Below are positions 19,062-47,378 of a DNA stretch of 64,000 nt, piece by piece. Under the pieces are notes generated by a model. It had not been told where the DNA came from, searched no databases, and worked only from the letters and a program-made list of their open reading frames with translations. A program made the translations under genes and the position numbers. Source of the DNA: Escherichia coli (GTDB lineage: Bacteria; Pseudomonadota; Gammaproteobacteria; Enterobacterales; Enterobacteriaceae). The DNA lies in assembly GCF_003018255.1 (NCBI RefSeq), contig NZ_CP027440.1. One strand, written 5' to 3'. Position 1 is the stretch's first letter; every line of letters starts with the position of its first letter.

Positions 19062-19294
19062 AACACCCTCTGAAGGTCTGAGAGACTGGCATTGTACGTC
19101 ACCTGAAATCAGGTTAGGGCATTGTTAAAAGCCGCTCTCTGGAAAAGCGTATTGTTAATCGCAACGCATGAATAAACAACGGTTTCAAGGGAATTTTTAT
19201 CGTTTCCGGGGGTTGAATACGCTGCCGGATGACGACTTAACGTTTCATCCGGCGTTCCTTGCAAGCGGGAGGAAACAGCGCCCTCCCCGGCATA

Positions 19295-31120: not shown

Positions 31121-31130
31121 ATAACTCCCG

Positions 31131-32180
31131 TTAAAAACTGTTCCTGCGCTGCCAGAGCAGTAGCAAAAAAAATGGTCCACCAATCAGTGAGATAATGATT
31201 CCGGCAGGCAGTTGCAAAGGCAAAAAAGCCAAACGACCAATGCTATCCGCCAGAATAACTAACAACGCCCCCGATACCGCGCTCCCCAGCAGTAATGTCG
31301 TCTGCCCGCCACGTAGAATAAAACGTGATATATGGGGTGCTATCAATCCGACAAAACCGATGTTACCAACACACGAAACGCAGACGGCTGTCAGGATTAT
31401 TGGTGCGGCGACACGTAACAACGCCAGACGAGAACTATTCACCCCTAACCCGGTTGCAACCTGATGACCAAGCAGAGCGATATCCGCCGTCCTGGCGGTG
31501 AACAGCAATAAAAGAGCGGCTGGCAACATCCAACAGGCTGAAATACCGACTAACATCCAGTTAGCTGCATGCAGGCTTCCCGATAACCACATCAATGCAG
31601 TTTGTACATCTCGAACATCTGCAGTGGTCATAAATACACCGATACCGGCGGCGAAAAACCAGGAAACACCAATACCAATCAGAACAAATCGCGGGCGGGA
31701 AATATCGCGCGCACAAAAAATCACGATTAAAGCCACCAACAAGCCACCAGCAAGACCAGCCACTGGACGCCAGAACATTCCCAGCATTGGAAACTGGAAA
31801 ATCAGCCACAGCACCGCCACGCTACATCCTTCTTTGACGCCGATTAAACCAGGATCGGCAAGGCCGTTACGCGCAATGGATTGCATCGCGGCCCCCGCCA
31901 TACCTAACATGGCTCCGCATAGCAATGCCATGATGACTCTCGGCAAGCGAATATCCTGCACAATATAACGTGCGTCTGTGCTTACGTTTTCTGGAGCAAA
32001 CAACGCTCGTCCTACTTCCGATGCCGGGACAGAAAAAGAACCCTGCATCAGACCGAATATCAGTATTCCAACCGCAAACAGAAACAGCCCACCAAGCAAC
32101 AGCAGATTTTTAGGGCGTACCAGTGTCGAAAACTTACCAACACGTAGTGGGCGTAGCCCGACGTTCATTATCCGACTCAT
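31131..32180 (-). CDS. FecCD-family ABC permease (349 aa)
   Basis: Polytopic membrane protein; FecCD/BtuC-type sequence; start overlaps the upstream permease stop. Confidence 0.85.
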   Translation of the reverse strand: MSRIMNVGLRPLRVGKFSTLVRPKNLLLLGGLFLFAVGILIFGLMQGSFSVPASEVGRALFAPENVSTDARYIVQDIRLPRVIMALLCGAMLGMAGAAMQSIARNGLADPGLIGVKEGCSVAVLWLIFQFPMLGMFWRPVAGLAGGLLVALIVIFCARDISRPRFVLIGIGVSWFFAAGIGVFMTTADVRDVQTALMWLSGSLHAANWMLVGISACWMLPAALLLLFTARTADIALLGHQVATGLGVNSSRLALLRVAAPIILTAVCVSCVGNIGFVGLIAPHISRFILRGGQTTLLLGSAVSGALLVILADSIGRLAFLPLQLPAGIIISLIGGPFFLLLLWQRRNSF

Positions 32181-33160
32181 TTGAACATCCTCGTCGCCAT
32201 AATGACAAAAACAGGCGCACCAACTAACGCCGTCATGACACCGGTCGCTAACTCATGGGGCGTGAAAAGCGTCCGGGCAATAATATCTGCCAGTAATAAC
32301 AAAAGTGCGCCGACACAAGCTGAAAGAGGGAGCAGAACGCGCAGATCCGCTGATACCAGACGCCGGACAATCTGCGGTACCAACAGGCCGACAAAACCAA
32401 TGGGGCCAGCAATCGATACGGCTGCGCCACAGAGCAACGCGATCGCAAGCAGGGTAAATGTTCGCGTGCGGAGTACAGAGACGCCCAGCCCCTGCGCCAT
32501 GCGATCGCCCAGTGCCAACATGTTAAGGTAGGGTGCAAGGTAAAGGGCTAACACAAATCCCCCCAGAGAAAACCAGGCGGACGTACCCAGCGTCGCCCAA
32601 TCCTGCCCCGCTAAATCACCTGCTAGCCATGTCCGCATCGCCAGCAGTGTTTGTTCGTCAAGAATCAGGATTGCAGCCGTTATTGAGGACACGAACGCCG
32701 ATAGCGCCACGCCGCATAAAGTAACTTTCATTGGCGTTACCCCTGAACGCCCTGCGGAGGAAAGCAGCAATATCAACAGGAACAATAACGCGCCCCCCGT
32801 AGATGCCAGCAGTGGGCGTCCAACCGGAAAGGCCAGTCCAAGCGCACTGGCGGCAACGACAGCAAGAGCGGCTCCGGCATTTAAGCCTAAAATATGTGGC
32901 TCCCCCAATGGGTTACGAATGACAGCCTGCAACAAAGCACCAGCAACACCAAGAGAAGCACCGGTAAGCAATGCTGCCGCTAAACGCGGCAAACGGAGTC
33001 TTACAATTACGTTGTGATCGAAGTTTTGCGGATCAAAATGAAGAAATGCCTGCAACACCGTTTGTGGTGCAATAAATCGGGCACCAATCCCTGGATATAC
33101 CACGCATCCCACCAGCAGTAAGGCGAGGAAAATTACAGTAACCAGCCCTGTGCGCATCAT
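32177..33160 (-). CDS. FecCD-family ABC permease (327 aa)
   Basis: Polytopic membrane protein paralogous to the adjacent permease; start overlaps the ATPase stop. Confidence 0.85.
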   Translation of the reverse strand: MMRTGLVTVIFLALLLVGCVVYPGIGARFIAPQTVLQAFLHFDPQNFDHNVIVRLRLPRLAAALLTGASLGVAGALLQAVIRNPLGEPHILGLNAGAALAVVAASALGLAFPVGRPLLASTGGALLFLLILLLSSAGRSGVTPMKVTLCGVALSAFVSSITAAILILDEQTLLAMRTWLAGDLAGQDWATLGTSAWFSLGGFVLALYLAPYLNMLALGDRMAQGLGVSVLRTRTFTLLAIALLCGAAVSIAGPIGFVGLLVPQIVRRLVSADLRVLLPLSACVGALLLLLADIIARTLFTPHELATGVMTALVGAPVFVIMATRMFK

Positions 33161-33966
33161 ACTTTTTCTACACCACGAAACGGCATGAAGAACGGCTTTC
33201 CCGTCAGAGGATTTATTGATGCGTGAACATCAACGTCAAAGACAGCTTTTACCAGCTCAGGCGTGCAATGCTCCCCCTCATTCAACACACGCACCACTTT
33301 CCCCTGGCGTAAAAATATCAACGTATCGCCATAATTGACGGCAAAATTCAGATCATGCAACACCACGACGACTGTACGCCCGTGATGACGCGTTAAATCA
33401 TGTAATAACTCAAGAATTTCAACCTGATAACGTAAATCAAGCCAGGTTGTGGGTTCATCCAGCAGGATATAAGGCGTCTTTTGCGCCAACACCATCGCAA
33501 TCCAGCAACGCTGGCGCTGCCCACCAGAGAGTTTTTCAACAGGTAAATGTGCAAACTCCTGCGTACCGGTTAATTTCAGGGCCTCTTCCACCGCCTGCTC
33601 ATCGGCGTCGCTCCATTGACGTATGAAATTTTGCCAGGGAAAACGCCCACGCGACACCAGTTCATAAACGGTTAAGCCCTCCGGCAATAATGGCGACTGC
33701 GGCAAGATCCCAAGTCTACGGGATAACGCTTTCGTTGGTTGCTCGTGAATCGCTTTGCCATCAAGCAATATCGAACCGCCCATAGGTTGCAAGATACGTG
33801 CAATGGTGCTGAGCAACGTCGACTTTCCACAGCCGTTTGCCCCAACCAGAACGGTCATTTTTTCTGTGGGAACGGAGAAAGAAACACCATCAACAATGAT
33901 CTTCTTGTGATACCCGGCAGAAACATTGTCGAGGATCAGCCCCTGCCCTTTTGCGTTATGTGCCAC
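33157..33966 (-). CDS. ABC transporter ATP-binding protein (FecE/FhuC-like), 269 aa
   Basis: Walker A GANGCGKST, ABC signature LSGGQRQR, Walker B ILLDEPT; GTG start. Confidence 0.88.
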   Translation of the reverse strand: MAHNAKGQGLILDNVSAGYHKKIIVDGVSFSVPTEKMTVLVGANGCGKSTLLSTIARILQPMGGSILLDGKAIHEQPTKALSRRLGILPQSPLLPEGLTVYELVSRGRFPWQNFIRQWSDADEQAVEEALKLTGTQEFAHLPVEKLSGGQRQRCWIAMVLAQKTPYILLDEPTTWLDLRYQVEILELLHDLTRHHGRTVVVVLHDLNFAVNYGDTLIFLRQGKVVRVLNEGEHCTPELVKAVFDVDVHASINPLTGKPFFMPFRGVEKV

Positions 33967-34220
33967 GTGTACGCCAACTTAATCAAAGACAAACAAAAAT
34001 AAAACTCATTCTCCTTTGAGAGTTTGACGCCACAAAATGTAGTAGTCAAGCAGTTAAAAGCCACACAAAAACAAGGTAAATAACAGGTAAAATATTTTTA
34101 TACATAAAAATAAAAACATTAAATATCAATAAATTAAAAGCAATCAAATTGTATAAGCCTTTCATAAAAACACATGTAGCAATTTTTTGTTATTTCTCAT
34201 TTACTACTACATTACTGCGT

Positions 34221-34240
34221 GATTGAATGATTCTCAATTA
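34221..34240 (+). promoter_or_regulatory. Putative Fur-box-like element upstream of the TonB-dependent receptor gene
   Basis: gattgaatgattctcaatta partially matches the Fur consensus, about 100 nt upstream of the receptor start within an AT-rich divergent promoter region; weak. Confidence 0.3.
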
Positions 34241-34339
34241 CATATCCGATGGCGAAATAACAAACGGATAGTGCTTAGTGAGCAATAAGAAACAATTTTC
34301 ACTCGCGACAATCCGCGAGTTTTTGGGATAACAGACTAA

Positions 34340-36481
34340 ATGGCTATGTTCACACCTTCATTCTCAGGACTCAAAGGTCGGGCGCTCTTTTCACTGCTTT
34401 TTGCGGCACCGATGATTCATGCAACAGACTCTGTAACGACCAAAGATGGCGAAACAATCACTGTTACAGCAGATGCAAATACCGCAACTGAGGCAACCGA
34501 TGGTTATCAACCTCTGAGCACCTCCACGGCGACATTAACCGATATGCCGATGCTGGATATCCCGCAGGTGGTCAATACGGTTAGCGATCAGGTTCTGGAA
34601 AACCAGAATGCGACGACGCTGGATGAGGCGCTTTATAACGTCAGTAACGTGGTACAGACCAATACATTAGGCGGGACTCAGGATGCTTTTGTACGCCGTG
34701 GGTTTGGCGCAAACCGGGATGGCTCCATCATGACCAACGGTCTGCGAACCGTACTTCCTCGCAGTTTCAACGCCGCCACAGAACGTGTGGAAGTGCTAAA
34801 AGGCCCGGCCTCCACGCTGTATGGCATTCTCGATCCTGGCGGACTGATTAACGTCGTGACCAAGCGCCCGGAAAAAACATTCCATGGTTCGGTTTCAGCC
34901 ACCTCCTCCAGTTTTGGTGGCGGCACTGGGCAACTTGATATCACAGGTCCCATTGAAGGCACTCAGCTGGCGTATCGCCTTACCGGGGAAGTGCAGGATG
35001 AAGATTACTGGCGAAACTTCGGTAAAGAGCGCAGTACATTTATTGCCCCGTCACTCACCTGGTTTGGTGATAATGCAACAGTAACCATGCTCTATTCCCA
35101 TCGGGACTATAAAACTCCGTTCGATCGTGGAACGATTTTCGACCTTACGACGAAACAGCCCGTAAACGTTGATCGAAAAATACGTTTTGACGAACCGTTT
35201 AATATTACAGATGGTCAGTCCGATCTGGCGCAACTCAACGCAGAATATCATCTCAATAGCCAGTGGACAGCGCGCTTTGATTACAGCTACAGCCAGGATA
35301 AATACAGCGATAATCAGGCGCGTGTTACCGCGTATGATGCAACGACAGGAACACTGACACGGCGTGTTGATGCAACTCAGGGATCTACCCAGCGTATGCA
35401 TGCTACTCGTGCGGATCTGCAAGGGAATGTTGATATTGCCGGATTCTATAATGAGATTCTGGGTGGGGTGTCATATGAATATTATGATCTTCTGCGTACA
35501 GATATGATTCGCTGTAAAAAAGCTAAAGATTTCAATATCTACAACCCTGTTTATGGTAATACCAGCAAATGTACAACGGTTTCGGCGTCGGACAGTGATC
35601 AGACGATCAAACAGGAGAGCTACTCAGCGTATGCACAGGACGCACTCTATCTGACCGATAACTGGATTGCCGTCGCCGGGATCCGCTATCAGTATTACAC
35701 GCAGTATGCGGGTAAAGGCCGTCCTTTTAATGTCAATACTGACAGCCGCGATGAACAATGGACTCCCAAACTGGGGTTGGTCTACAAACTGACGCCATCG
35801 GTATCCTTATTTGCCAATTATTCGCAAACATTTATGCCGCAGTCGTCAATTGCCAGCTACATTGGCGATCTTCCACCGGAATCATCTAATGCTTACGAAG
35901 TCGGGGCAAAATTCGAGCTATTCGATGGTATCACCGCAGATATTGCGCTGTTTGATATCCATAAACGTAATGTGTTGTATACCGAAAGTGTTGGTGATGA
36001 AACCATTGCCAAAACGGCAGGCCGTGTTCGTTCAAGAGGGGTAGAAGTCGACCTTGCGGGAGCATTAACTGAAAACATTAATATCATTGCCAGCTACGGC
36101 TATACCGATGCTAAGGTTCTGGAAGATCCTGATTATGCAGGTAAACCATTGCCGAATGTTCCTCGTCATACCGGTTCGCTATTCCTGACCTATGACATTC
36201 ATAACATGCCTGGCAATAACACACTGACGTTTGGCGGTGGTGGACATGGCGTAAGCCGTCGTTCGGCAACCAATGGGGCTGACTATTATCTGCCAGGCTA
36301 TTTTGTTGCCGATGCCTTCGCCGCATACAAAATGAAATTGCAGTATCCGGTCACACTGCAATTAAACGTCAAAAACCTGTTTGATAAAACGTATTACACC
36401 TCTTCCATCGCCACAAATAATCTGGGGAATCAGATTGGCGATCCGCGTGAAGTGCAATTCACGGTGAAAATGGAATTTTGA
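34340..36481 (+). CDS. TonB-dependent outer-membrane siderophore-type receptor (713 aa)
   Basis: Signal peptide, TonB-box-like ETITVTA, plug and barrel sequence blocks, C-terminal aromatic residue (..VKMEF); divergent from the ABC importer operon (arrangement resembles fit-type iron uptake loci; symbol not assigned). Confidence 0.9.
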   Translation: MAMFTPSFSGLKGRALFSLLFAAPMIHATDSVTTKDGETITVTADANTATEATDGYQPLSTSTATLTDMPMLDIPQVVNTVSDQVLENQNATTLDEALYNVSNVVQTNTLGGTQDAFVRRGFGANRDGSIMTNGLRTVLPRSFNAATERVEVLKGPASTLYGILDPGGLINVVTKRPEKTFHGSVSATSSSFGGGTGQLDITGPIEGTQLAYRLTGEVQDEDYWRNFGKERSTFIAPSLTWFGDNATVTMLYSHRDYKTPFDRGTIFDLTTKQPVNVDRKIRFDEPFNITDGQSDLAQLNAEYHLNSQWTARFDYSYSQDKYSDNQARVTAYDATTGTLTRRVDATQGSTQRMHATRADLQGNVDIAGFYNEILGGVSYEYYDLLRTDMIRCKKAKDFNIYNPVYGNTSKCTTVSASDSDQTIKQESYSAYAQDALYLTDNWIAVAGIRYQYYTQYAGKGRPFNVNTDSRDEQWTPKLGLVYKLTPSVSLFANYSQTFMPQSSIASYIGDLPPESSNAYEVGAKFELFDGITADIALFDIHKRNVLYTESVGDETIAKTAGRVRSRGVEVDLAGALTENINIIASYGYTDAKVLEDPDYAGKPLPNVPRHTGSLFLTYDIHNMPGNNTLTFGGGGHGVSRRSATNGADYYLPGYFVADAFAAYKMKLQYPVTLQLNVKNLFDKTYYTSSIATNNLGNQIGDPREVQFTVKMEF

Positions 36482-36483
36482 TC

Positions 36484-36509
36484 AAAAAAGCCCGGTATGT
36501 TTACCGGGC
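36484..36509. terminator. Bidirectional terminator between receptor gene and GPH symporter gene
   Basis: Seen in sequence: A-run, then gcccggta-tgtt-taccgggc hairpin (T-run on the minus strand). Confidence 0.5.
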
Positions 36510-36588
36510 TGAGACTGATGACAAACTCCAAATTGTCTGATGCGCTACGCCCATCAGATCTACCATAGAAATTCAATATATTAAATTT

Positions 36589-37920
36589 TCATATATTTTT
36601 AGGCTGTAAACACACCTTAATCTGTTCGTAATATTCATTATTAATCAGATAAAATCTCATGATGAGTCCGGTAATCAGGTTAAGTATCGCGGGAATGATC
36701 GTCATTAACAGGCAGATCCCCCACAACGCCTGTGGTGTTTGTTCTACGCCAGGTTGATAGTCCATAAACGCTAAAGCGATTCCGATAAACCCTCCCGCCA
36801 GTCCCATACCAAACTTTTGAAAAAAGAGAATCCCGCCAAATGCCAGTCCAGAAACACGTTGCCCCGTTTTCATTTCACCATAATCCACTGACTCAGCAAT
36901 GGATGCCCAATAAATGGGAAGCTGAATATCAGTCAGAAAGGTCACCACAATATAAAATGTAAAAGCTAACACTATAGAATTTGGTTGCACGAAATACATC
37001 GCACCACCCACCACGAACGCCAGTAATTGGGTATAACGAAATATTTTTATTTTGTCGTAGAGTCGAGTAAGCCAGGTGCAAGCGATCATAGCCAGAACAG
37101 AGGCGATCACGCCTGAAGTTAAAAACGGTGAAATTAAAGCATCCCCACCATTCAGGTAATATTTTGCATAATATGCAGCGACAGAGTTACGAATAATCCC
37201 GCCAAACATAATGATCGCAATTACAGCGCCCAAAATGAGCCATTGATCATTTTTGATCAGTAACCGAAACTGCGCGGCCATACCGAGACTGGGTTTTGGA
37301 TGGTAGATGCGCTCTCTCACGCTAAAAAAACAATACAGGCATAAACACGTTGCCAGAATTCCCATTGCCCCCATTGCTATTTGATAACCCAGTTGTACGT
37401 TATTCTTCCCAAGATACATTGCAGATAAAGGAACAATAATTGTTACGGCGAACATGGCAATTTTTGTCATAACAAAACGATAACCATTGGCGCTCAATCG
37501 CTCTTGTGGATCATCCGTGATAACGCTGATTAATGAAACATAAGGAATAGCGATTAACGTATAGGTCAAGGTAAGTAACACATAGGTAGCCCAAGCCCAT
37601 AAAAGCTTAACTGAATAATCGGTATTAGGTGTGGTGAACATCAACCAAATGCTTATCCCAAACGGTATTGACATAAAAAGCAACCACGGCCGATATTTTC
37701 CCCAACGTGTATTCGTTCTGTCTGTCATTGTTCCCACAACTGGATCAATCACAGCATCAAGGATACGTACAGAAAATAACAGAATACCTAAGTCGACGGG
37801 TTTCAGACCAAATACATCCGTGTAAAAATAAGTGATGATCATGGCCAAAGACATCATTACTATCGCGATAGCCATATCACCAGCACCAAAACCTATCTTT
37901 TCATTTATTGTAAGTTTCAT
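36589..37920 (-). CDS. MFS/GPH-family glycoside-pentoside-hexuronide:cation symporter (about 443 aa)
   Basis: 12-TM-like hydrophobic profile with MelB/GPH-like N-terminal region (GFGAGDMA, DxxxDPxxG-like DAVIDPVVGTMTDR); start set at the ATG for MKLTINEK. Confidence 0.8.
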   Translation of the reverse strand: MKLTINEKIGFGAGDMAIAIVMMSLAMIITYFYTDVFGLKPVDLGILLFSVRILDAVIDPVVGTMTDRTNTRWGKYRPWLLFMSIPFGISIWLMFTTPNTDYSVKLLWAWATYVLLTLTYTLIAIPYVSLISVITDDPQERLSANGYRFVMTKIAMFAVTIIVPLSAMYLGKNNVQLGYQIAMGAMGILATCLCLYCFFSVRERIYHPKPSLGMAAQFRLLIKNDQWLILGAVIAIIMFGGIIRNSVAAYYAKYYLNGGDALISPFLTSGVIASVLAMIACTWLTRLYDKIKIFRYTQLLAFVVGGAMYFVQPNSIVLAFTFYIVVTFLTDIQLPIYWASIAESVDYGEMKTGQRVSGLAFGGILFFQKFGMGLAGGFIGIALAFMDYQPGVEQTPQALWGICLLMTIIPAILNLITGLIMRFYLINNEYYEQIKVCLQPKNI

Positions 37921-38206
37921 ACACAGCACTCATTGATTACGTGAACTTATATTAAAAACAAATATATCTGAACTCATTCAGCACATAACTTTACGAGTGA
38001 GCATAAATGCATTGGTTGATACCACAACAAACCATTGAGTCAATATTGAGCAACATCACATAAAAACCAATTTCACTTAATCTCATGATTTATATATTTA
38101 ATTGTGGTTTTTTCTGTTTTATGTCACAGATAGTGAACAAGCACCATGCGTAATAAAAGTTAAAGAATGTAGAGTTGGTATCAACCACTTGAAATGAGGC
38201 TTTGTC

Positions 38207-38959
38207 ATGATAAAAATTTATAAAGCCAGTAAAGGTCAGCTAAAGCATCGTGAAATCTTTGATGAAATAAAGAAAAAAGTAGATAACGGTGAATGGAAAG
38301 AAGGCAAAGCCATACCGACAGAAAGGGAATTGTCAGAATATTATTTAAGTAGCAGAACAACTATTCGAAAGGCAATAGAAAGTCTTAAACAACGCGGCTA
38401 CCTGCATAGTGTCCACGGGCAAGGAACATTTGTATTGCCTTCTCGTAGTAGAGAAAATCATTTATTGCATAGTTTTACCGACGATATTAAAGCTCGAGGT
38501 GGTATACCAGCACAGAATATTCTTGAGATAGGCTATGTTCCTGTCAGTGATGTTATCAGAAAAAATCTCGACCTGGATATCCATATCCAAACCGTATTCT
38601 GTATAAAACGCGTTCGCTATATGGGAAGTACCCCCCTGGGTATTCAGACATCATGGCTTGCATTAAATGACAGGCAAGAAATAACCCAAGAAGATCTGCT
38701 GGCGACGGGTTCGCTCTATATTTTACTGGAAGAAAAACTCGCTATTAAACCTTTAGAAGCAACAGAAATTATCTCTGCCCGGCTTCCCTCGCCCCTTGAG
38801 CGTCAATTACTGGAACTGACTGCCGATGATGTCGTATTAAGTTGTACCCGCGTCACGTTATCCGTGGAACGCAAACCAATGGAGTATGTAGAGATGGTGT
38901 ATCCCGCAAGCCGGTACTCCTACAAAGCACGAATTACAAAAGACAGTTTTAGCGTGTAA
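38207..38959 (+). CDS. GntR/HutC-family transcriptional regulator with UTRA effector domain (250 aa)
   Basis: N-terminal GntR winged HTH (PTERELSEYYLSSRTTIRKAIESL) and a C-terminal domain of UTRA length. Confidence 0.85.
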   Translation: MIKIYKASKGQLKHREIFDEIKKKVDNGEWKEGKAIPTERELSEYYLSSRTTIRKAIESLKQRGYLHSVHGQGTFVLPSRSRENHLLHSFTDDIKARGGIPAQNILEIGYVPVSDVIRKNLDLDIHIQTVFCIKRVRYMGSTPLGIQTSWLALNDRQEITQEDLLATGSLYILLEEKLAIKPLEATEIISARLPSPLERQLLELTADDVVLSCTRVTLSVERKPMEYVEMVYPASRYSYKARITKDSFSV

Positions 38960-38972
38960 CAGAGAGAATATT

Positions 38973-40049
38973 GTGAACAAAATAGAACAAGCTGTAATTT
39001 ATAACAAAATATTAGGTTCTTTAGCCTGCGCAGGTATGGGCGATGCATTAGGCGCAGCGACTGAACTCTACAGCATTGATGAAATAAAAGCTCAATGGGG
39101 AGGTTTTTTAAATGCCTTTGTTTCTCCTCCTGCCGATACATTCGCTGGCTCATTAAATGGTATTGCGGGACTTATCACCGACGATTCCAGCCAAATGTAT
39201 GTGTTTTCAGAAGGGTTAATTGAGGCTGGATTTGATAACTTCACCAATAATGACTGGTTAGCTTGTCTTCTGCGTTGGGCCGATATGCAGCCCTACGCAA
39301 ATTATAAAGGCCCCACAACAGAACAAATCGTCAAGGCACTAAAAGAAGGTAGACCAACAAACACCATTGGGCGTATTGGAACATCTTCTCGTCAGGCACC
39401 CAATGTCGGCACCACGAATGGAGCAGGAATGCGTGTAGCCCCTGCAGGATTGATCTGGCCAGGCAAGAAAGAAAAAGCGTGTCACCTGGCGCTAATAACT
39501 TGCCTACCTTCGCATGACACCAATATTGCGATTGCCAGCGCTTGCGCCATCGCTGCGGCGACATCACAAGCTATGTTACCAGAAGCTTCGCTCACATCAT
39601 TACTGGACGCCGCAATCTGGGGAGCGAATTACGGCGAACGCCTGGCCAAACAATATGCACGATGTGTCGCAGGGCCATCTATCGCCATGCGCATCCAACT
39701 TGCAGCGGACATCGCCAGACGAGCCAATGACCTGGAGTCTTGTCTGCGAGAAATGGAAGGTTTGGTTGGTAACTCTGTTGCCGCCCATGAATCCATTCCT
39801 GCGGCAATCGGTCTATTGCTGTACTGCAAAGGAGAACCCTGGGAAACCATTCATGCCTGCGCCAATATTGGCAATGACACCGATAGCATCGCTACGATGG
39901 CAGGCGCAATTGCAGGGGCATGGCGCGGTTTTGATGCGCTCCCTGAAGATAAATATGCCTTTTTCCGCGCCGTAAATAATAAAGATTTCGATATTGAAGC
40001 GATCGCATCGGGTCTGACATTGCTTGCATTAGAGGCACAGGAGAAATAA
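38973..40049 (+). CDS. ADP-ribosylglycohydrolase (ARH/DraG) family protein (358 aa)
   Basis: N-terminal GSLACAGMGDALGAATE and C-terminal NIGNDTDSIATMAGAIAGAW blocks match the two conserved ARH-family metal-binding regions. Confidence 0.8.
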   Translation: MNKIEQAVIYNKILGSLACAGMGDALGAATELYSIDEIKAQWGGFLNAFVSPPADTFAGSLNGIAGLITDDSSQMYVFSEGLIEAGFDNFTNNDWLACLLRWADMQPYANYKGPTTEQIVKALKEGRPTNTIGRIGTSSRQAPNVGTTNGAGMRVAPAGLIWPGKKEKACHLALITCLPSHDTNIAIASACAIAAATSQAMLPEASLTSLLDAAIWGANYGERLAKQYARCVAGPSIAMRIQLAADIARRANDLESCLREMEGLVGNSVAAHESIPAAIGLLLYCKGEPWETIHACANIGNDTDSIATMAGAIAGAWRGFDALPEDKYAFFRAVNNKDFDIEAIASGLTLLALEAQEK

Positions 40050-41047
40050 TGAACATGCCAGCCCGTACTCCTGTTATGCCATTAGCGCAAACTCGTGAGG
40101 AGATAAATGCTACGGCGGCATCGTTACGCCATTTGGCAGCTATCTGGGGTGAATGTTTTTCTACTTTTCAGCTCGATAAACGTGCTGTTGAACGCGTCTG
40201 TATAGTGGGATCGGGCGACTCCTGGACGGTGGCACTATGTGCCGCCGCCTGGCTGGGGAAATACACACATCTGTTTTGTTACGCATTGCAAACGTGGGAT
40301 TTTCTTCAGACTGATTTAACCCGTTATCAGAAAGAAACGTTAATCATTATTCTCAGTGCAAGTGGCAGACCATCAATGACCGTTGACGCCCTCTGCCACG
40401 CAGTATGCTCAAACGCGCAAGTGCTGGGTGTGACGAATTGCCCTGGAACACCATTTTGCGCAATAACAGAAAACATGCTCTATACATGGGCGAATAAGCA
40501 GGGTATTCCAACGCAAAGTAGTAGCGTCACACTTTATGCCCTCCTGCGCTTAGCGCAAAAATTATGTCCAGGCTTAACACCACTGCAGATTGAAGATGAT
40601 TTGGAAGGGAAATTTAGCCAGATTAATCAGCACTGGCAGCAAAAGAAGCGCCATTTTTACCAACAAAAAGAGATAACGTTTCTTGGGAGTGGCTTAAGTT
40701 GGGGACTGGCAATATCGGGGAGCAATTTACTTTCTTGCGGCCCACAGATTCGTGCGACAGCCCTTCCACTGGAAGAATTTTATCATTCATTACGCTTACA
40801 TCAGGCTGGTGTCGGTCAGCATTATATTTTACTACCAGCCACATCCTGCGAGTCCCCATTTTACCTTGCAACCCAAAAAGCAATTGTTGAACAGGGAGCG
40901 ACAGCAGAATTAATCAGTTTTATACCTGACGCCAGTGAGTCCAACAATTTATTTCTGGTCATGCAGTGGTTATATGAAATGTGCTGGAATTTAAGTTGTG
41001 ATTATGTCGACGCAGGCGGGCAACGCGTTAGCCATAGGGAGAAATAA
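40049..41047 (+). CDS. Double-SIS-domain sugar-phosphate isomerase/deglycase-like protein (FrlB/AgaS-like), 332 aa
   Basis: Two SIS-like segments (VCIVGSGDSW...IIILSASGRPSMTVDA and ITFLGSGLSWGLA...); its start overlaps the ARH stop by 1 nt (TAATG). Confidence 0.72.
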   Translation: MNMPARTPVMPLAQTREEINATAASLRHLAAIWGECFSTFQLDKRAVERVCIVGSGDSWTVALCAAAWLGKYTHLFCYALQTWDFLQTDLTRYQKETLIIILSASGRPSMTVDALCHAVCSNAQVLGVTNCPGTPFCAITENMLYTWANKQGIPTQSSSVTLYALLRLAQKLCPGLTPLQIEDDLEGKFSQINQHWQQKKRHFYQQKEITFLGSGLSWGLAISGSNLLSCGPQIRATALPLEEFYHSLRLHQAGVGQHYILLPATSCESPFYLATQKAIVEQGATAELISFIPDASESNNLFLVMQWLYEMCWNLSCDYVDAGGQRVSHREK

Positions 41048-41051
41048 GACT

Positions 41052-41966
41052 ATGAAGAAATTTGATGTCGCCGCTTTAGGCAGTGGAAATATAGATATTT
41101 TTTTATCTATCCCGTCACTCCCCACTCGTGGCGGTAAAGTTGTCGGGACACGTCTGGGTGAACAAGCTGGCGGCACAGTCGCCAACAGTGCCTGTGCGAT
41201 GGGACAACTGGGTCTCAATGTGGTATCTGTTTCATGTGTGGGCAATGATCATTCAGCCTCGATCATTCTTGATGGATTTAAAAAATATCATGTAAATTGT
41301 GATTTCGTTCAGGTAATTCCGGAATTGATTGCCAATACCGCGATTATCTTTATTGATGAATTAGGTGAAAAAACGTTGGTTTACTCGCCTGGTAGTGATC
41401 ATGAGTGGGATAAAGAAAAAGCCCTGCAGGCAATTGCGCAAAGCCGTTATTTTTATACGATGCCAGCAGATATCGAGAAATTTCGTATGCTGGCCGAATA
41501 TTCCCGTAGCCAGATGACAAAAGTTGTCGTTGATATTGAGCCTCATATCATTGCAACACCTGAACACCTTGCCAGAATTTTACACCTTGCTGATATTGCG
41601 ATATTTAATTATGACGGTTTTATTCGTGGCTATGCAACAGAGCCAGATTTTACACTTCTGCATGATATACAAGACGAGTATCAACTTGACGCTGTCGTGG
41701 TTACGCTGGATGTTAGGGGAGTAATTGCAGTCAAAGGCAATGAGCAAGTAAAAATAGGTAGTTATACAATTCCCGTTATTGATACCACAGGCGCTGGAGA
41801 TACTTTTAATGGTGCATTTGTTTATAGCTTAATAAAAAATATGCCCTTAATTGAAGCACTAAAATTTGCTTCTGCCACAGCAGCAATAAATATTACTGCA
41901 TTAGGTGCCAGAGGTCATCTGCCGACACCATCGGAGGTTAATCTTTTTCTTTCACAACACGACTAA
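41052..41966 (+). CDS. PfkB-family carbohydrate kinase (ribokinase-like), about 304 aa
   Basis: PfkB signature DTTGAGDTFNGAF near the C-terminus and a glycine-rich N-terminal lid; start set at MKKFDVAALGSG, 5 nt after the SIS stop. Confidence 0.85.
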   Translation: MKKFDVAALGSGNIDIFLSIPSLPTRGGKVVGTRLGEQAGGTVANSACAMGQLGLNVVSVSCVGNDHSASIILDGFKKYHVNCDFVQVIPELIANTAIIFIDELGEKTLVYSPGSDHEWDKEKALQAIAQSRYFYTMPADIEKFRMLAEYSRSQMTKVVVDIEPHIIATPEHLARILHLADIAIFNYDGFIRGYATEPDFTLLHDIQDEYQLDAVVVTLDVRGVIAVKGNEQVKIGSYTIPVIDTTGAGDTFNGAFVYSLIKNMPLIEALKFASATAAINITALGARGHLPTPSEVNLFLSQHD

Positions 41967-41993
41967 AATCATATATATACAAAGGTAAATATC

Positions 41994-43118
41994 ATGAAAA
42001 TAAGATATGCCGCTATTTTTCTGGCATTACCGCTGTTATGCACAACAGCGCAGGCAAACAGTTTTCTTCATTATGCTGGGGAGTTTAACTTCCGGACGGG
42101 AGAAAAGCAGAACAATGTCACAATCGCGGGGCTATCAGCCATCACATTTGATGCAAAAAAAAATATTTTCTATGCTATTAACGATAGCAGAAACAATAAT
42201 AAAGAAGGAGATGCCAGTCTTTATACACTAAAAATACAGGTATCATCCAGGGGCATTGAGCAAGTGAATTTTCTCAACCAGCGTCCACTGCTTGATGCAA
42301 AACAGCAACCTTTCGTGACCAATACGGTGGATGCCGAAGGTCTGGCCCTGACACACAATGGTAAATCATTACTCTGGAGTTCGGAGTTAGGTGCTCCACT
42401 GCGTCTGAGCACTCTCGATGGCGTAATGGAGAAAGATTTTACGTCTTTATTTCCTGCTCGCTTTAATATTAGTTCTGACAAAGAGAGCAGCAATGGTATT
42501 CGCAGCGGCAACGCCTGGGAGGGCCTGACAGTTACACCAGATGGAAAATCACTTTTTATCGCCGTTGAAAGCAGCCTTAAACAGGATGGGCCTATTGCAA
42601 GTCCAATAAATTCAGGCACATCACGCTTACTGCAATTTTCTATAGATGCAGACGGTCGACCTTCAAAGCAATTGCATGAATATCTCTATATTACTGATCC
42701 TGTTCCGCAAGTGAGTAAGTTCGGTATTAATGATAATGGCGTATCCGAGGTCATGGCGCTGAATGATCACCAATTGTTGGTCATCGAACGTTCCGGCAGA
42801 AACGTCAGTGCTGGGTTCAATGACTGGGATTACTCTGTCAGAGTTTATATGGTCGATTTAACTGCTGCCAGCGATATCAAGAATATTGACAGTCTGCAAG
42901 ATTGGTCCAATAAATCCACGTTACAACCCGTCAGTAAAAAATTATTAATTGATTTTGCTGATTACACTTCCTCTGCGGATTGTATTGAAGGGGTAACCTT
43001 CGGTCCTCTGATTGATGGGCATACATCGTTAATATTTGTATCTGATAATAATTTCCAGCCCCATCAACAGACGAAATTTTATCTATTCATTGATAAGGAA
43101 AACAAACTTAAAATTTAA
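41994..43118 (+). CDS. Secreted beta-propeller phytase-like / esterase-like protein (374 aa) with signal peptide
   Basis: Signal peptide MKIRYAAIFLALPLLCTTAQA; repeated EGLxxTxDGKSLFIAxE and IEGVT blocks resembling beta-propeller phytase-like proteins; family assignment is tentative. Confidence 0.5.
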   Translation: MKIRYAAIFLALPLLCTTAQANSFLHYAGEFNFRTGEKQNNVTIAGLSAITFDAKKNIFYAINDSRNNNKEGDASLYTLKIQVSSRGIEQVNFLNQRPLLDAKQQPFVTNTVDAEGLALTHNGKSLLWSSELGAPLRLSTLDGVMEKDFTSLFPARFNISSDKESSNGIRSGNAWEGLTVTPDGKSLFIAVESSLKQDGPIASPINSGTSRLLQFSIDADGRPSKQLHEYLYITDPVPQVSKFGINDNGVSEVMALNDHQLLVIERSGRNVSAGFNDWDYSVRVYMVDLTAASDIKNIDSLQDWSNKSTLQPVSKKLLIDFADYTSSADCIEGVTFGPLIDGHTSLIFVSDNNFQPHQQTKFYLFIDKENKLKI

Positions 43119-43213
43119 AGTCAAACTATAGATACAAAAACATTCTAATACATGGAATCATCAGATGGTGTATTCGATCACCAAAAATATATTTTATTCT
43201 GAAAGGGAATATT

Positions 43214-43948
43214 ATGAATTCTTATCTTAAAATATCACTTGCAGGAATAACAATGTTATCCTGCCTGTCACCTACACTAGTCTGTGCAGAACAGCCGCAT
43301 GGATTTATTGATTATCGCCATGAGTATCTTGATGATACTCGCACCCACGCGGACCGCGTTGAATTTGGTACATTTTTTAGTAATGGTATCGGTTTGATGG
43401 GAGAATTACGCTATAACACCGATGAAGGTGATAAAGATAAGTGGGACCCCTCACAATTTGGCAATAACGGAACAGGATTATCTGTTGTTTACCGCTTTAA
43501 GCCGCTGGATGACAAAAAATTCTGGTTAGAACCCATGTTCTGGCTTGATACCACGCAATATTGGTCAACTTACGAATATGGTCTTTCTGCGGGTTATGAC
43601 TTCAGCAAAGAATGGAAAGTTTCAGGTCGGTTTCGTTATGACATGGATAAAGCCACCGATAAATCCAAAGGTTATGGCAACGATGATCGTAATAACCGCC
43701 GTTACGATGTGTGGATCGACTATCGACCACAAAAAACCAACTTCCAATATCAGTTAAACCTGGTCTATTACAATAATGGTTATTTAACCTGGAATGATGG
43801 CCATAAAAACTATACCGCATCATTTAAAGTAGGGTACAAAATGGGATCGTGGATACCCTATATGAGTATTGCGGATTATAAAGGTGTGGATAAAACATCA
43901 AGTAATCGCCAAATCCGCTGGCGCTGGGGTCTGACTTATACTTTCTAA
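43214..43948 (+). CDS. KdgM/NanC-family small outer-membrane porin (244 aa)
   Basis: Signal peptide, about 220-aa mature protein with alternating amphipathic beta-strand pattern rich in Y/W/R/D, C-terminal ...WGLTYTF aromatic terminus; resembles oligogalacturonate/sialic-acid-specific porins. Confidence 0.7.
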   Translation: MNSYLKISLAGITMLSCLSPTLVCAEQPHGFIDYRHEYLDDTRTHADRVEFGTFFSNGIGLMGELRYNTDEGDKDKWDPSQFGNNGTGLSVVYRFKPLDDKKFWLEPMFWLDTTQYWSTYEYGLSAGYDFSKEWKVSGRFRYDMDKATDKSKGYGNDDRNNRRYDVWIDYRPQKTNFQYQLNLVYYNNGYLTWNDGHKNYTASFKVGYKMGSWIPYMSIADYKGVDKTSSNRQIRWRWGLTYTF

Positions 43949-43961
43949 TCTGGAATAAAAA

Positions 43962-44831
43962 ATGAATAATAAATTTAAAATCATTCTCTGGATGATGCTC
44001 TCTGCTCTGCCTGCTTTATCTTACGCACAGGTAAAAAATATAGTTACTGGCGAATATAGTGCGGTCAGTAAAATTATCACAGAAAAGGAAACTCTCTATC
44101 CATCCGATAAGATATTATTGGTTTTTGACATTGATAACACGTTATTAACGAGTGGCACTCGCATTGGCGGTGATATCTGGTATCAATGGCAAACCGATAA
44201 ATTGCCTTTAAAGCCGGATGACTCGCAAAAAGTTCCTTGCCTGTATGAAAATACAATCAGTATGCTTTACGAACTTAGCCCTATGCAGCTTACCGAGCCA
44301 CAGTTACCGACAATGTTAAAACAGTGGCAACAAAAGCATACCGCTTTTGCTCTGACATCCCGTGCACCGGATACTCTCTTTCCGACATTGCGGGAATTAA
44401 AGCGAAACGGCATTGATTTTTCGTCTTCCGCACTCAGGAAGAAAGAGGATACTTTGCCACCCTTTGAAAAAGGGAAACTCAAACGGTCATGGCTGTACAG
44501 CCAGGGGGTATTTTTTTCTTCCGGGCAAGATAAAGGCGTAATTCTCGATTATATGCTGGATAAAATGGGGAACAAATATGACGCGATTGTTTTTATCGAT
44601 GACGGGCAAGCAAACATTCATGCGATGACGAAGATGTTCTCTAAGGATAAATGGTCCTCTACGGATTTTACCATTATTCACTATACCAGAGTGGAGGATG
44701 AGCTTATTAAACAACAAGGTGCAGTAATAACAACTGCACAAGCAGAAAAAATGGCTACGGACTGGAAAACTCTGGCTGGTTCGCTGGCAACACTATTTCC
44801 AGATCGTAATAAACTGTGCCCAATAAAATAA
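43962..44831 (+). CDS. Secreted HAD-superfamily hydrolase/phosphatase-like protein (289 aa)
   Basis: Signal peptide MNNKFKIILWMMLSALPALSYA; HAD motif I DxDxT (VFDIDNTLL) and later FIDDGQAN aspartate motif. Confidence 0.6.
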   Translation: MNNKFKIILWMMLSALPALSYAQVKNIVTGEYSAVSKIITEKETLYPSDKILLVFDIDNTLLTSGTRIGGDIWYQWQTDKLPLKPDDSQKVPCLYENTISMLYELSPMQLTEPQLPTMLKQWQQKHTAFALTSRAPDTLFPTLRELKRNGIDFSSSALRKKEDTLPPFEKGKLKRSWLYSQGVFFSSGQDKGVILDYMLDKMGNKYDAIVFIDDGQANIHAMTKMFSKDKWSSTDFTIIHYTRVEDELIKQQGAVITTAQAEKMATDWKTLAGSLATLFPDRNKLCPIK

Positions 44832-44839
44832 TCAACGAC

Positions 44840-44868
44840 AACCCGGCAAAACACATGTTTGCCGGGTT
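44840..44868. terminator. Hairpin between the island's last gene and parE
   Basis: Seen in sequence: aacccggcaaa-acacatg-tttgccgggtt, 11-bp perfect stem; no strong T-run. Confidence 0.4.
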
Positions 44869-44875
44869 AAGATTA

Positions 44876-46771
<1,896 letters not shown>

Positions 46772-46796: not shown

Positions 46797-47378
46797 TCAG
46801 AGATGGTGCAGACCAAGAAAATCGACGATCGGGTTGAAATAATCTTCGAAGCCCGTGAATGCGTGGTTGCCGCCTTCTATGACAGTCTGGCGGCAGGAAG
46901 CGTAGTACGCCACCGCCTGGCGGTAATCCAGCACTTCATCTCCCGTCTGTTGCAGCAGCCAGATCAAATCCGGCGCTTCCAGCGGGTCAATCTGCATGAC
47001 TTTGAGATCGTAAATATGGCGTGACTCTAGCACATATTGCTGCCCGGTGTAGGGGTTCTCGTTCTGACCGAGATAGTCCGTCAGCAGTTCAAACGGGCGC
47101 ACCGCCGGGTTTACCACCACTGCGGGCAGCATAAAACATTGCGACAACCAGGTGGCGTAATATCCCCCCAGTGACGAACCGACAATACCCAGCGAATCGC
47201 CGCCATGTTCCAGGACAATGGATTCCAGCAGTTCTGCCGCATCGGAAGGATACGGCGGCAACTGCGGGATGATCATCTCAACGTCAGGGTGATGTTCCGC
47301 AAGCCAGTTTTTTAACAAGCTCGCTTTTGCAGAGCGCGGCGAGCTGTTGAAACCGTGTAAATAAAGAAGCGTAGACAT
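46797..47378 (-). CDS. yqiA: Esterase YqiA (193 aa)
   Basis: ORF track 193 aa; GSSLGG serine-hydrolase motif; recognised sequence. Confidence 0.9.

Follow-up and report, generated by a model that had tools for sequence, protein, structure and literature searches.

A 64-kb window of Escherichia coli DNA, meaning the whole stretch that was analysed, contains an accessory island that we read as a self-contained scavenging system, repressed by a GntR regulator, for an extracellular ribosyl conjugate derived from a nucleotide, in which a PfkB-type kinase would act before an ADP-ribosylglycohydrolase (ARH) family enzyme. We put the probability of this reading at about one half. If it is correct, some 7% of E. 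coli strains hold a complete uptake and breakdown route for a ribose-linked, nucleoside-like compound, in an island built around an ARH-like enzyme.

We infer every biochemical step of the route, the order of the steps and the substrate class. A KdgM-type porin is proposed to admit the phosphorylated precursor through the outer membrane into the periplasm, where a phytase-like propeller and a HAD phosphatase would remove its phosphates. The resulting neutral riboside would be imported by a GPH symporter and phosphorylated on the ribose 5-OH by the PfkB riboside kinase. The ARH is then proposed to hydrolyse the C1 ribosyl bond at its two-metal site, yielding ribose-5-phosphate and the aglycone; finally, a GlmS-like SIS protein might isomerise the pentose phosphate, or process another phosphosugar.

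An Eight-Gene Accessory Island

The island spans positions 36511-44870 of the window (8.36 kb), between a TonB-dependent siderophore receptor gene and parE; its boundaries were set by alignment with the island-free E. coli strain L002. Its G+C content is about 40-45%, as against about 50-55% in the flanks, and neither an integrase nor flanking direct repeats were seen at the island. A G+C-rich hairpin (44838..44866) lies between the last island gene and the convergent parE, while a second hairpin (36487-36510), a possible terminator of the symporter gene, lies at the opposite end.

The five open reading frames described in the initial annotation (symporter, GntR/UTRA regulator, ARH, SIS protein and PfkB kinase) are intact at the positions given there, in agreement with RefSeq. 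As a unit, however, that set was incomplete: three envelope genes (41994-44831) follow it, and both halves of the island are directly observed in an identical set of 405 out of 5426 complete E. coli genomes (about 7%). The island is thus eight genes gained or lost jointly as a single unit. The tight packing noted earlier was also found, with a 1-nt overlap between the ARH and SIS genes (TAATG) and a 4-nt gap separating the SIS stop from the PfkB start; the gap from the GntR gene to the ARH gene is 13 nt, and a Shine-Dalgarno-like sequence precedes each start.

These genes are not chance open reading frames, because the RefSeq annotation contains the same genes as the list of frames, dN/dS is between 0.00 and 0.32 for all eight genes when two E. 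coli alleles are compared (about 4% apart, with 8/8 genes intact and equal in length), and orthologous gene sets exist in Enterobacter, Kosakonia, Providencia and Vibrio.

No island protein reached the cut-off of a curated NCBIfam equivalog, public databases give the proteins generic names only, and a full-text literature search found no paper describing the island. The suggestion of an undescribed catabolic locus therefore stands, and a catabolic or scavenging role, without a characterised counterpart, is supported.

Genomic Context and Probable Substrate Class

Among 56 related ARH loci from many phyla, the ARH adjoins a PfkB kinase in 50 and is frequently found near nucleoside-type (Bmp) ABC transporters, GntR regulators and nucleoside hydrolases. 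Among solved structures, those nearest to the Bmp protein are receptors for nucleosides, PnrA being one. Orthologous or related loci also encode UshA (739 bits; cut-off, 600), an adenosine deaminase scoring above the TIGR01430 cut-off, the Tsx channel and Rih-type nucleoside hydrolases. The initial annotation had overlooked this nucleoside and nucleotide context, but the ribosyl conjugate that it suggested, more precisely a nucleoside-like one, is in our judgement the likeliest class of substrate. The loci from Firmicutes and Chloroflexi are distant, with 35-50% identity to the E. coli ARH, and may serve other substrates.

The ARH-Family Enzyme

The cytoplasmic ARH-family (PF03747) glycohydrolase (38973..40049, plus strand; no signal peptide) shows the highest conservation of all the island proteins. 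The alignment directly reveals all the catalytic and metal-binding residues of ARH3: E31 corresponds to ARH3 E41, T69/D70/D71 to T76/D77/D78, H181 to H182, and D302/D304/S305 to D314/D316/T317. The AF2 model has a pLDDT of 95 and its fold matches, best first, MJ1187 (TM 0.74/0.87), ARH3 and DraG. With the catalytic and metal ligands and the His182 counterpart kept, and the fold confidently predicted, the enzyme looks active. MJ1187, ARH3 and DraG share its fold and two-metal catalytic residues, but only 20-26% identity, and MJ1187 is the closest solved structure.

Membership of this family, together with the intact active site, would also suit a non-catabolic function, whereby the ARH reverses ADP-ribosylation of a protein or a small molecule (as do DraG, Tri1 and ARH3) or the locus tunes a nucleotide-sugar pool, a role already suggested for yegTUV with respect to ADP-glucose and glycogen; in vitro, the paralogous regulator YegW is responsive to ADP-glucose, and it has an effect on glycogen (PMC10819704). 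However, the genomic context of the island ARH is catabolic import, not protein modification. A residue alignment gave no equivalent in the island ARH for the adenine-stacking Tyr149 of ARH3, no ADP-ribosyltransferase gene lies nearby, and defence-system models returned no matches. Moreover, import would account for the porin, the two secreted phosphoesterases and the symporter, whereas intracellular regulation would not, and the family-wide association is with nucleoside ABC importers and nucleoside hydrolases. We regard a non-catabolic function as improbable.

Several natural fusions involve the ARH. A ribulose-phosphate-epimerase-ARH protein (P0221) links it to pentose phosphate metabolism; PfkB-ARH polypeptides (P0258, P0312, P0298 and P0236) and a GntR/UTRA-ARH protein (P0216) were also found.

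The PfkB Kinase and the Proposed Order of the Steps

The kinase gene occupies 41052..41966 on the plus strand (304 aa); 41052, the RefSeq start, is the real one, and 40998, the start of the longest open reading frame, is not. The product is ribokinase-like, with the RbsK residues D16, G41, G42, N46 and D255 kept, and Asn14 also kept in the E. coli protein. The ribokinase signature itself is directly seen to be missing: Lys43 of RbsK is replaced by Thr, and Glu143 is not retained, the residue in its place being Pro or Ala according to the alignment used. Ribokinases are described as conserving both residues strictly and as filling the nucleobase pocket with them (PMC7797080). Because both are replaced, ribosides rather than ribose appear to be the substrate, and we propose, from these residues, that the enzyme is a riboside 5-kinase rather than a ribokinase.

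The initial annotation had placed cleavage before phosphorylation. In that classical order, the ARH would free ribose from the imported riboside, a divergent ribokinase would make ribose-5-phosphate and the SIS protein would isomerise it. The solved structures nearest to the kinase are indeed true ribokinases (4x8f, 1e-31; E. coli RbsK, 3e-29), which, given the retention of Asn14, makes free ribose a possible substrate; Asp16, Asn46 and Asp255 point the same way, as does the fact that ribokinase is the best NCBIfam match, although at 148 bits the score is half the curated cut-off of 300. Bacteroidetes ribose-utilisation loci likewise pair ARHs with ribokinases. On the other hand, Lys43 and Glu143 are both replaced in the ARH-partner kinases; ten related loci encode, beside the partner kinase, a further one that does bear Lys43 and Glu143 and would be superfluous in the classical scheme; and E. 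coli already possesses rbsK. The classical order is therefore probably wrong, and we consider it an unlikely but not negligible alternative.

The proposed order, kinase before ARH, follows from this residue logic and from analogy with pseudouridine catabolism (PsuK/PUKI and PsuG), which we propose as the mechanistic template. There, an open-pocket PfkB kinase phosphorylates the riboside and a glycosidase then frees ribose-5-phosphate and the base (PMC7797080). The components differ, however: PsuG belongs to the unrelated YeiN/PsuG family and cleaves a C-glycoside, and the island kinase scores about 23 bits against the pseudouridine kinase model (cut-off, 540).

The SIS Protein

The phosphosugar-binding SIS protein (40049..41047, plus strand) resembles the isomerase module of GlmS. 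Pfam sees one SIS domain in it, whereas the family profile aligns across the whole two-domain (double-SIS) GlmS isomerase module (1moq, 1.8e-20), covering the two SIS halves, with lower scores for NagB-II and FrlB-like structures. Its invariant features are the phosphate loops GSGDS and SxSGRPS and the ring-opening histidine H246 (equivalent to H504). The position of Glu488 is occupied by Cys in gamma-proteobacteria, Glu in Chloroflexi and Ala in Nitrospirillum, so that the GlmS general base is absent from the E. coli protein. The protein is also the fastest-evolving of the set, and its gene, found in 10 of the 56 related loci as against 50 for the kinase, lies outside the conserved core. With the general base gone, such fast evolution and absence from most related loci, what it does can only be guessed at; of our assignments, that of an isomerase acting on the pentose phosphate product is the weakest.

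The regulator, SIS protein and kinase had been likened to those of the fructoselysine locus frlABCDR, where a GntR regulator likewise accompanies a PfkB kinase and a double-SIS protein of the GlmS/FrlB fold class. In an Amadori pathway of this type, the ARH would first remove a ribosyl or glycosyl group, the kinase would act on a ketoamine and the SIS protein would be a deglycase. Formally the trio is the same, the SIS protein falls within the GlmS/FrlB/NagB-II structural family, and four distant ARH loci include TrpF-like genes, whose family performs the Amadori rearrangement of phosphoribosylamine. The scores nevertheless fall far below the curated cut-offs (SIS protein, 19 bits versus 430 for FrlB; kinase, 45 versus 247 for FrlD), and membership of the frl group is not supported. 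The SIS gene is missing from 46/56 related loci, with the ARH and the kinase retained, the E. coli SIS protein lacks the general-base Glu, and the neighbours are nucleoside and nucleotide genes rather than amino-acid transporters or asparaginase-type genes. The frl locus, for its part, has no ARH, and its transporter is of another class, FrlA being an amino-acid-type permease. An Amadori pathway is the least probable of the alternatives, with a very small chance of being right.

The Symporter and the Envelope Module

The glycoside:cation symporter of the GPH family (MFS_2) is encoded on the minus strand at 36589..37920 (443 aa, RefSeq start 37920; the longest open reading frame is 36589-37929). 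It passes the TIGR00792 GPH model (348 bits; cut-off, 231) and scores under the cut-offs of the YagG, UidB and MelB models. Loci of Vibrio, Burkholderiales and Rhizobium have a Bmp-type nucleoside ABC transporter instead.

All three proteins encoded downstream of the kinase, on the plus strand, have signal peptides. The first is a secreted, phytase-like (PF13449) five-bladed beta-propeller (41994..43118), proposed to be a periplasmic phosphoesterase acting on the extracellular precursor; structure comparison found no close solved relative, and the folds that it matches best are not those of phosphatases. The second is a small outer-membrane porin of the KdgM family (43214..43948; PF06178 at 3.6e-30), which has orthologues in the loci of Enterobacter, Kosakonia, Providencia and Vibrio; in three of these loci it accompanies a Tsx nucleoside channel or substitutes for one. 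The third, a secreted DUF2608/HAD-superfamily phosphatase (43962..44831; PF11019 at 5.8e-60, with weak HAD matches), has the motif I sequence DIDNT at residues 56-60 and a signal peptide ending in SYA. Providencia, Kosakonia and Vibrio encode an UshA-type 5'-nucleotidase where the E. coli island has this phosphatase.

Related Systems

Nearest to the island are two uncharacterised loci, yegW-yegTUV and Salmonella STM4065-67. Like the island, yegW-yegTUV of E. coli K-12 (the GgaR regulon) comprises a GntR/UTRA repressor, a sugar/nucleoside-type MFS importer, an ARH and a PfkB kinase, YegV, that likewise lacks the ribokinase residues (Cys43, Tyr143). yegTUV is reported to form a single transcript repressed by YegW (PMC10819704). 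At 32% identity for the ARH, 22% for the kinase and 26% for the regulator (YegW/GgaR), these are distant paralogues; the yegTUV transporter is of the NHS rather than the GPH family, and this core gene set has, unlike the island, no SIS protein and no envelope module. The likeness is one of analogy, not annotation.

In Salmonella Typhimurium, the STM4065-STM4067 operon pairs a PfkB kinase (STM4066) with an ARH-family protein (STM4067), as in the island. We take STM4065 to be a permease of the Na+:galactoside (GPH) family and STM4068 a GntR regulator; SIS or envelope genes are not known there. STM4066 acts as an aminoimidazole-riboside (AIRs) kinase, and mutation of STM4067 leads to attenuation in the pig intestine (PMC3161100). 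We count the activity of STM4066 in favour of a riboside kinase in the island. The island kinase matches the STM4066 structure (1tyy) at 1e-14, more weakly than true ribokinases, so the two kinases are not orthologues.

The Rus loci of Bacteroidetes, in which nucleoside hydrolases, ADP-ribosylglycohydrolases, glycosidases and ribokinase-family kinases scavenge conjugated ribose (bioRxiv 10.1101/574913), share with the island the concept of ribose-releasing enzymes, kinase, permease and regulator. They differ in being SusC/SusD-based polysaccharide-utilisation-type loci with true ribokinases and with RusR or LacI as regulators; the island has none of these parts.

Regulation

The GntR/HutC-subfamily regulator with a UTRA effector domain (38207..38959, plus strand) matches HutC, PhnF and TreR-type models, each under its cut-off, and presumably represses both divergent units. 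The 277-bp divergent spacer contains two TGGT-N4-ACCA palindromes, a motif that occurs 5 times in the 64-kb window against 0.99 expected. The first candidate operator, TGGTTGATACCA (38013..38024), falls within the divergent promoter, some 90 nt upstream of the start of the symporter gene, and the second, TGGTATCAACCA (38176..38187), lies 31 nt (start to start) upstream of the regulator start codon. Conservation of the pair is directly observed, at equal distances, in Enterobacter, Providencia and Kosakonia, and TGGTACGTACCA is found upstream of the GntR gene in the Vibrio, Burkholderiales and Rhizobium loci.

An Eight-Gene Accessory Island Next to parE

The window is E. coli chromosome. At about 33-47 kb, the genes of a siderophore ABC transporter are followed by one for a TonB-dependent receptor (34340-36481), by the island, and then by parE (44876-46768, minus strand). 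The initial annotation had singled out five open reading frames as a candidate undescribed catabolic pathway, and all five are present: a GPH-family symporter gene (36589-37920) on the minus strand and, on the plus strand, genes for a GntR/UTRA regulator (38207-38959), an ADP-ribosylglycohydrolase-like (ARH) protein (38973-40049), a double-SIS protein (40049-41047) and a PfkB kinase, whose real start is at 41052. The tight packing claimed for them was also borne out, as the ARH and SIS genes overlap in the sequence TAATG and the SIS-kinase gap is 4 nt; a Shine-Dalgarno-like sequence precedes the start codon of each of the five genes. The unit is larger than first reported, with three further same-strand genes downstream of the kinase, encoding a secreted phytase-like protein (41994-43118; PF13449, 2.8e-67), a KdgM-family porin (43214-43948) and a secreted DUF2608 protein (43962-44831) that bears the HAD phosphatase motif DIDNT and for which sequence search finds no solved relatives. 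An additional 153-aa reading frame (39514-39975, plus strand), lying in another frame within the ARH gene and without RefSeq annotation, was taken as spurious.

Comparison with an island-free strain placed the borders at 36511 and 44870, with a G+C-rich hairpin at each. Of 5426 complete E. coli genomes, 405 carry the first 5.7 kb of the island, and the count for the last 2.9 kb is also 405, so the eight genes form a single 8.36-kb presence/absence unit. The G+C content is 36-45% across most of the island, rising to about 50% where ARH and SIS are encoded; the flanks have 50-55%. In two island alleles that differ by about 4%, none of the eight reading frames is disrupted or changed in length, and dN/dS values are 0.00-0.32; judged from sequence, selection is maintaining the island genes.

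When signs of a mobile-element origin were looked for, no integrase, transposase or direct repeats were found at the island ends. The sole match in a search of plasmids was a 4.8-Mb record, evidently a chromosome, and none of the six island proteins tested matched a PADLOC anti-phage defence model.

Between ygiN and parE lies a hotspot for indels, and its two cargoes, the siderophore ABC/receptor locus (30000-36500 of the window) and the island, are independent of each other: one strain (L002) has the siderophore locus without the island, an O113:H21 strain (L090) has the island without the siderophore locus, and the window has both. In some strains, IS4, an IS5-like element (ISKpn26 family) and IS1 lie inside the island (E. 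coli matches H3, H21 and H26), meaning that it is occasionally being inactivated. The core gene nudF, for ADP-ribose diphosphatase, is about four genes past parE in the annotation of locus L001; its adjacency is probably coincidental, because island-free strains share the same arrangement.

Comparison with Known Systems

No island protein reaches the curated-model cut-off of a characterized enzyme or regulator family; the symporter alone passes a curated cut-off, and only that of the general GPH family model. The names in public databases are equally generic ('ADP-ribosylglycohydrolase family', 'SIS domain-containing', 'carbohydrate kinase family', 'esterase-like activity of phytase family', 'MFS transporter'). 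A full-text literature search returned nothing describing this locus or an ARH-kinase catabolic pathway, the relevant literature being limited to papers on yegTUV, STM4067 and Bacteroides Rus. The assignment to a well-characterized pathway that we looked for in family models, database names and literature was thus not found, and the proposal of an undescribed catabolic pathway stands.

In its logic, the island comes closest to yegW-yegTUV of E. coli K-12 and STM4065-67 of Salmonella. Each of these combines an ARH and a PfkB kinase with an importer and a regulator, as the island does. Identities to the island proteins are 32% for YegU, 22% for YegV and 26% for YegW. The island belongs to this ARH-PfkB-transporter-GntR type of locus: the four parts are present and adjacent, and a non-ribokinase signature is common to its kinase and YegV. 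Repression of yegTUV by YegW and a response of YegW to ADP-glucose have been reported (PMC10819704). Salmonella mutated in STM4067 shows attenuation in the pig intestine (PMC3161100). The ribose-utilization loci of Bacteroidetes embody the same idea, but with different parts (bioRxiv 10.1101/574913).

The locus had also been likened to those for Amadori compounds, such as frl. This analogy fails. The FrlB model (NF008481, fructoselysine-6-phosphate deglycase) gives the SIS protein 19.2 bits against a cut-off of 430; the FrlD model (NF007321, fructoselysine 6-kinase) gives the kinase 45.1 bits against 247, with ribokinase models scoring three times higher; and the SIS protein, whose family profile favors the GlmS isomerase domain, has Cys at the general-base position (Glu488 in GlmS). 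What the island shares with frl is only the generic trio of protein families.

The ARH Protein

The catalytic and metal-binding residues of ARH3 are invariant in the 15 family members aligned. In the island protein, Glu31 corresponds to Glu41 of ARH3, Thr69-Asp70-Asp71 to Thr76-Asp77-Asp78, and Asp302/Asp304/Ser305 to Asp314/Asp316/Thr317, while His181 aligns with His182. The AlphaFold (AF2) model (pLDDT 95) is closest to MJ1187 (TM 0.74/0.87), then to ARH3 (TM 0.70-0.74) and then to DraG. From its residues and modeled fold, the enzyme looks catalytically competent. It lacks a signal peptide and, of all the island proteins, is conserved best (78% identity to Enterobacter).

Judged by residues and model scores, an ADP-ribose-specific activity of the ARH1, ARH3, DraG or Tri1 kind is unlikely. 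The adenine-stacking Tyr149 of ARH3 has no equivalent, its position being a one-residue deletion flanked by Thr, and the DraG and Tri1 models score 40.9 bits (cut-off 337) and 22 bits (cut-off 490), respectively.

Natural fusions in this ARH subfamily are ARH-ARH, GntR/UTRA-ARH, ribulose-phosphate-3-epimerase-ARH and PfkB-ARH (proteins P0180, P0216, P0221, P0258 and P0312). Of these, the joining of a regulator to an enzyme in GntR/UTRA-ARH is unusual and may reflect an error in gene calling.

The PfkB Kinase

The nearest solved structures to the kinase are ribokinases, and it retains Asp16, Gly41-Gly42, Asn46 and the catalytic Asp255. Lys43, on the other hand, is replaced by Thr, and Glu143 by Pro or Ala, depending on the alignment. 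Both residues are strictly conserved in ribokinases, where they fill the space taken by the nucleobase in nucleoside-type PfkB kinases, as described with the structure of pseudouridine kinase (PMC7797080); the residue list is also given in PMC9604405. With these two replacements and a score of 147.9 bits on the ribokinase model TIGR02152 (cut-off 299.65), assignment as a ribokinase was rejected.

We surveyed positions 43 and 143 in 74 kinases, encoded next to ARH genes or taken from K-12. Only 10 of the 74 carry Lys43 and Glu143, and most of these (e.g., in L012, L014 and L030) are a second kinase beside a partner kinase with Thr43 and Tyr143. On the ribokinase model, the second kinases sampled score 237-251 bits, compared with 118-129 bits for the partner kinases. 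The same scavenging system could operate in the opposite order, with hydrolysis preceding a divergent ribokinase, as the structural neighbors of the kinase might suggest; yet a partner kinase that did no more than phosphorylate ribose would not readily account for loci that keep both kinds of kinase, and we regard this order as rather unlikely.

The loci with a Lys43/Glu143 kinase are L012, L013, L014, L020, L025, L027, L030, L043, L049 and L051; in most of them, the ARH-partner kinase (Thr43, Tyr143) directly adjoins the kinase with the ribokinase signature.

The link between kinase and ARH is further supported by natural fusions of an N-terminal PfkB domain to a C-terminal ARH domain (P0258, P0312, P0298 and P0236). 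The Salmonella kinase STM4066, encoded beside an ARH gene, phosphorylates aminoimidazole riboside (PMC3161100). The structure of this AIRs kinase (1tyy) is absent from the matches of YegV in a PDB search, implying that the two kinases are not orthologues.

Related Loci in Other Genomes

Homologues 50-80% identical to the ARH occur in Enterobacter, Kosakonia, Providencia, Klebsiella, Yersinia, Vibrio and many Burkholderiales, with more distant ones in Rhizobiales, Chloroflexi, Actinobacteria and Clostridia. A profile search (E up to 1e-30) returned 333 clusters at 50% identity, and a pattern scan of 100,044 species-representative genomes found 252 relatives; stand-alone ARH relatives are distributed over Proteobacteria, Chloroflexi, Actinobacteria and Firmicutes.

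Eighty genome loci were fetched, and their neighborhoods were scored with the island proteins and the proteins of three reference loci. Neighbors within 7 kb were counted in the 56 loci with at least 4 kb on each side of the ARH gene. A PfkB kinase was found in 50 of the 56, a Bmp-type ABC transporter in 32, inosine-uridine-type nucleoside hydrolases (up to four copies) in 30, a GntR regulator in 28, a phytase-like protein in 13 and an SIS protein in 10, the SIS gene being missing from most related loci. Among solved structures, those nearest to the Bmp binding protein are of nucleoside receptors, PnrA/TmpC for example.

The close enterobacterial and Vibrio loci share the E. coli core (GntR, ARH, SIS, kinase, phytase-like protein and KdgM porin), with either a GPH symporter or a Bmp ABC system as importer and, in some cases, an added Tsx nucleoside channel. 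In close loci, a UshA-type 5'-nucleotidase/UDP-sugar hydrolase (739 bits, above cut-off) replaces the HAD phosphatase, and the Providencia and Kosakonia loci add an adenosine deaminase (above the TIGR01430 cut-off). Such substitutions, as predicted from the encoded families, are those expected if a nucleoside-like riboside reaches the cell exterior in phosphorylated form, as a nucleotide.

The Vibrio bivalvicida locus (L003, 12485-19062) directly abuts a Tn7-like tnsABCDE set, and the Providencia locus (L006/L007, about 15500-19083) lies against RadC, DUF932 and antirestriction genes of the kind that integrative elements typically carry; these neighbors hint at how such loci move. Among the distant ARH loci, L021, L022, L033 and L038 contain TrpF-like (phosphoribosylanthranilate-isomerase-like) genes, while L062, L066, L069 and L083 contain genes resembling ribose-1,5-bisphosphate isomerase (eIF2B-family sugar-1-phosphate isomerases). 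L083, from Erysipelotrichaceae, also has a BtpA/SgcQ-family gene, and five tandem ARH paralogues lie there between a Bmp ABC transporter and a PfkB kinase.

A Predicted Route for Nucleotide-Derived Ribosides

In the substrates of ARH enzymes, the ribose has a substituent at C1 and, as part of ADP, a phosphate at its 5-position. If the kinase converted a riboside to the 5-phosphoriboside, its product would match this form, and the pseudouridine kinase/glycosidase pair offers an analogy, so that the kinase would act first and the ARH second. We favor, with a probability of about 0.5 for the mechanism as a whole, a system in which a nucleotide-derived riboside would be imported, probably phosphorylated, and then cleaved. 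The ribosyl conjugate envisaged in the initial annotation is strengthened as a candidate substrate and sharpened to a nucleotide-derived riboside; the order given there, cleavage before phosphorylation, probably has to be reversed. If the kinase does act before the ARH, ribosides would be cleaved in a way that is new, and the ARH fold would gain a new biochemical role beyond ADP-ribosylation signaling.

It is a long shot, though one that would fit every enzyme of the extended family, that the kinase-ARH pair is an unrecognized two-step route for alpha- or O-linked ribosides resistant to ordinary nucleoside hydrolases, with ribosyl-adenosine-type disaccharide nucleosides as candidate substrates. 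These might be what dephosphorylation leaves of poly(ADP-ribose), of phosphoribosyl-AMP, or of TIR-domain immune nucleotides that contain ribose-ribose bonds. Trimming in the periplasm would fall to UshA, phytase-like and HAD enzymes. The kinase would phosphorylate the distal ribose, and hydrolysis of the ribose-ribose bond by the ARH3-like enzyme would release ribose-5-phosphate and adenosine, the latter being finished by adenosine deaminase or Rih-type hydrolases. Were this so, no earlier catabolic pathway would compare with it in breaking down ADP-ribose polymers or signals: it would be the first, through which gut and plant-associated bacteria could consume or quench host molecules derived from ADP-ribose. 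To the readings other than these and the hydrolysis-first order we give little weight.

Pairs of a stand-alone ARH and a PfkB kinase are widespread, and none has an assigned substrate, K-12 yegTUV and STM4065-67 included. The island is an unusually complete version, with a porin, two secreted phosphoesterases, an importer, a regulator with recognizable operators, a kinase, a hydrolase and an isomerase (all predicted roles). Because of this completeness, and because the host is genetically tractable and natural presence/absence strains exist, the question of what bacterial ARH-kinase pairs consume becomes directly testable.

The SIS Protein

The SIS protein is the least certain part of the island. 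A profile built from 12 orthologues aligns across the complete two-domain isomerase module of GlmS (1moq, 1.8e-20), with NagB-II-type deaminases and FrlB-like proteins matching lower; the GlmS model itself gives 39 bits against a cut-off of 418. The phosphate-binding loops (GSGDS and SxSGRPS) and the ring-opening His246 (His504 in GlmS) are invariant. At the position of the GlmS general base Glu488, all gamma-proteobacterial members have Cys, those of Chloroflexi Glu, and those of Nitrospirillum/Azospirillum Ala. The protein is also the fastest-evolving of the set, with 48% identity to Enterobacter as opposed to the 78% of the ARH.

In every locus that has it, the SIS gene directly precedes the kinase gene and lies downstream of the ARH gene, to which it is directly adjacent except in the Chloroflexi loci. 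The existence of a ribulose-phosphate-3-epimerase-ARH fusion (P0221) suggests that the pathway may feed the pentose phosphate pathway. Our guess for the SIS protein, a ribose-5-phosphate/ribulose-5-phosphate-type isomerase, would fit such a link.

Candidate Operators

The 277-bp spacer between the divergent symporter and regulator genes contains two TGGT-N4-ACCA palindromes, at 38013 and 38176, the latter beginning 31 nt upstream of the regulator's start codon (start to start). Five such sites occur in the window, against 0.99 expected. The pair is kept at identical distances in Enterobacter, Providencia and Kosakonia, and most of the loci examined from Vibrio, Burkholderiales and Rhizobium have one or two copies of TGGTACGTACCA at the GntR gene or a short distance upstream. 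As a motif, TGGT-N4-ACCA is of the classic shape of HutC-subfamily operators. This shape, the placement of paired candidate operators in a shared spacer and their conservation across genera argue that the GntR regulator would control both the symporter gene and its own operon.

An Rfam search of 36400-45000 (E up to 1) gave no riboswitch match, and CRP-like sites were not above chance. Scans for sigma-70 promoters and terminators were at or below shuffle expectation, with no convincing internal terminator. Together with the gene junctions and the conserved operator pair, the latter result is indirect evidence that the genes may be co-transcribed and repressed by the GntR regulator.

The 95-nt spacer upstream of the KdgM-type porin gene contains the inverted repeat TGGTGTATTCGATCACCA (43166-43183), which has the half-sites of the TGGT-N4-ACCA operators but a 10-nt spacer; either it matches by chance or it is a further operator, the third, of atypical form. 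Two more exact TGGT-N4-ACCA matches lie outside the island, at 46804-46815 (36 nt upstream of the parE start) and at 34650-34661 (within the receptor gene); both are probably due to chance.
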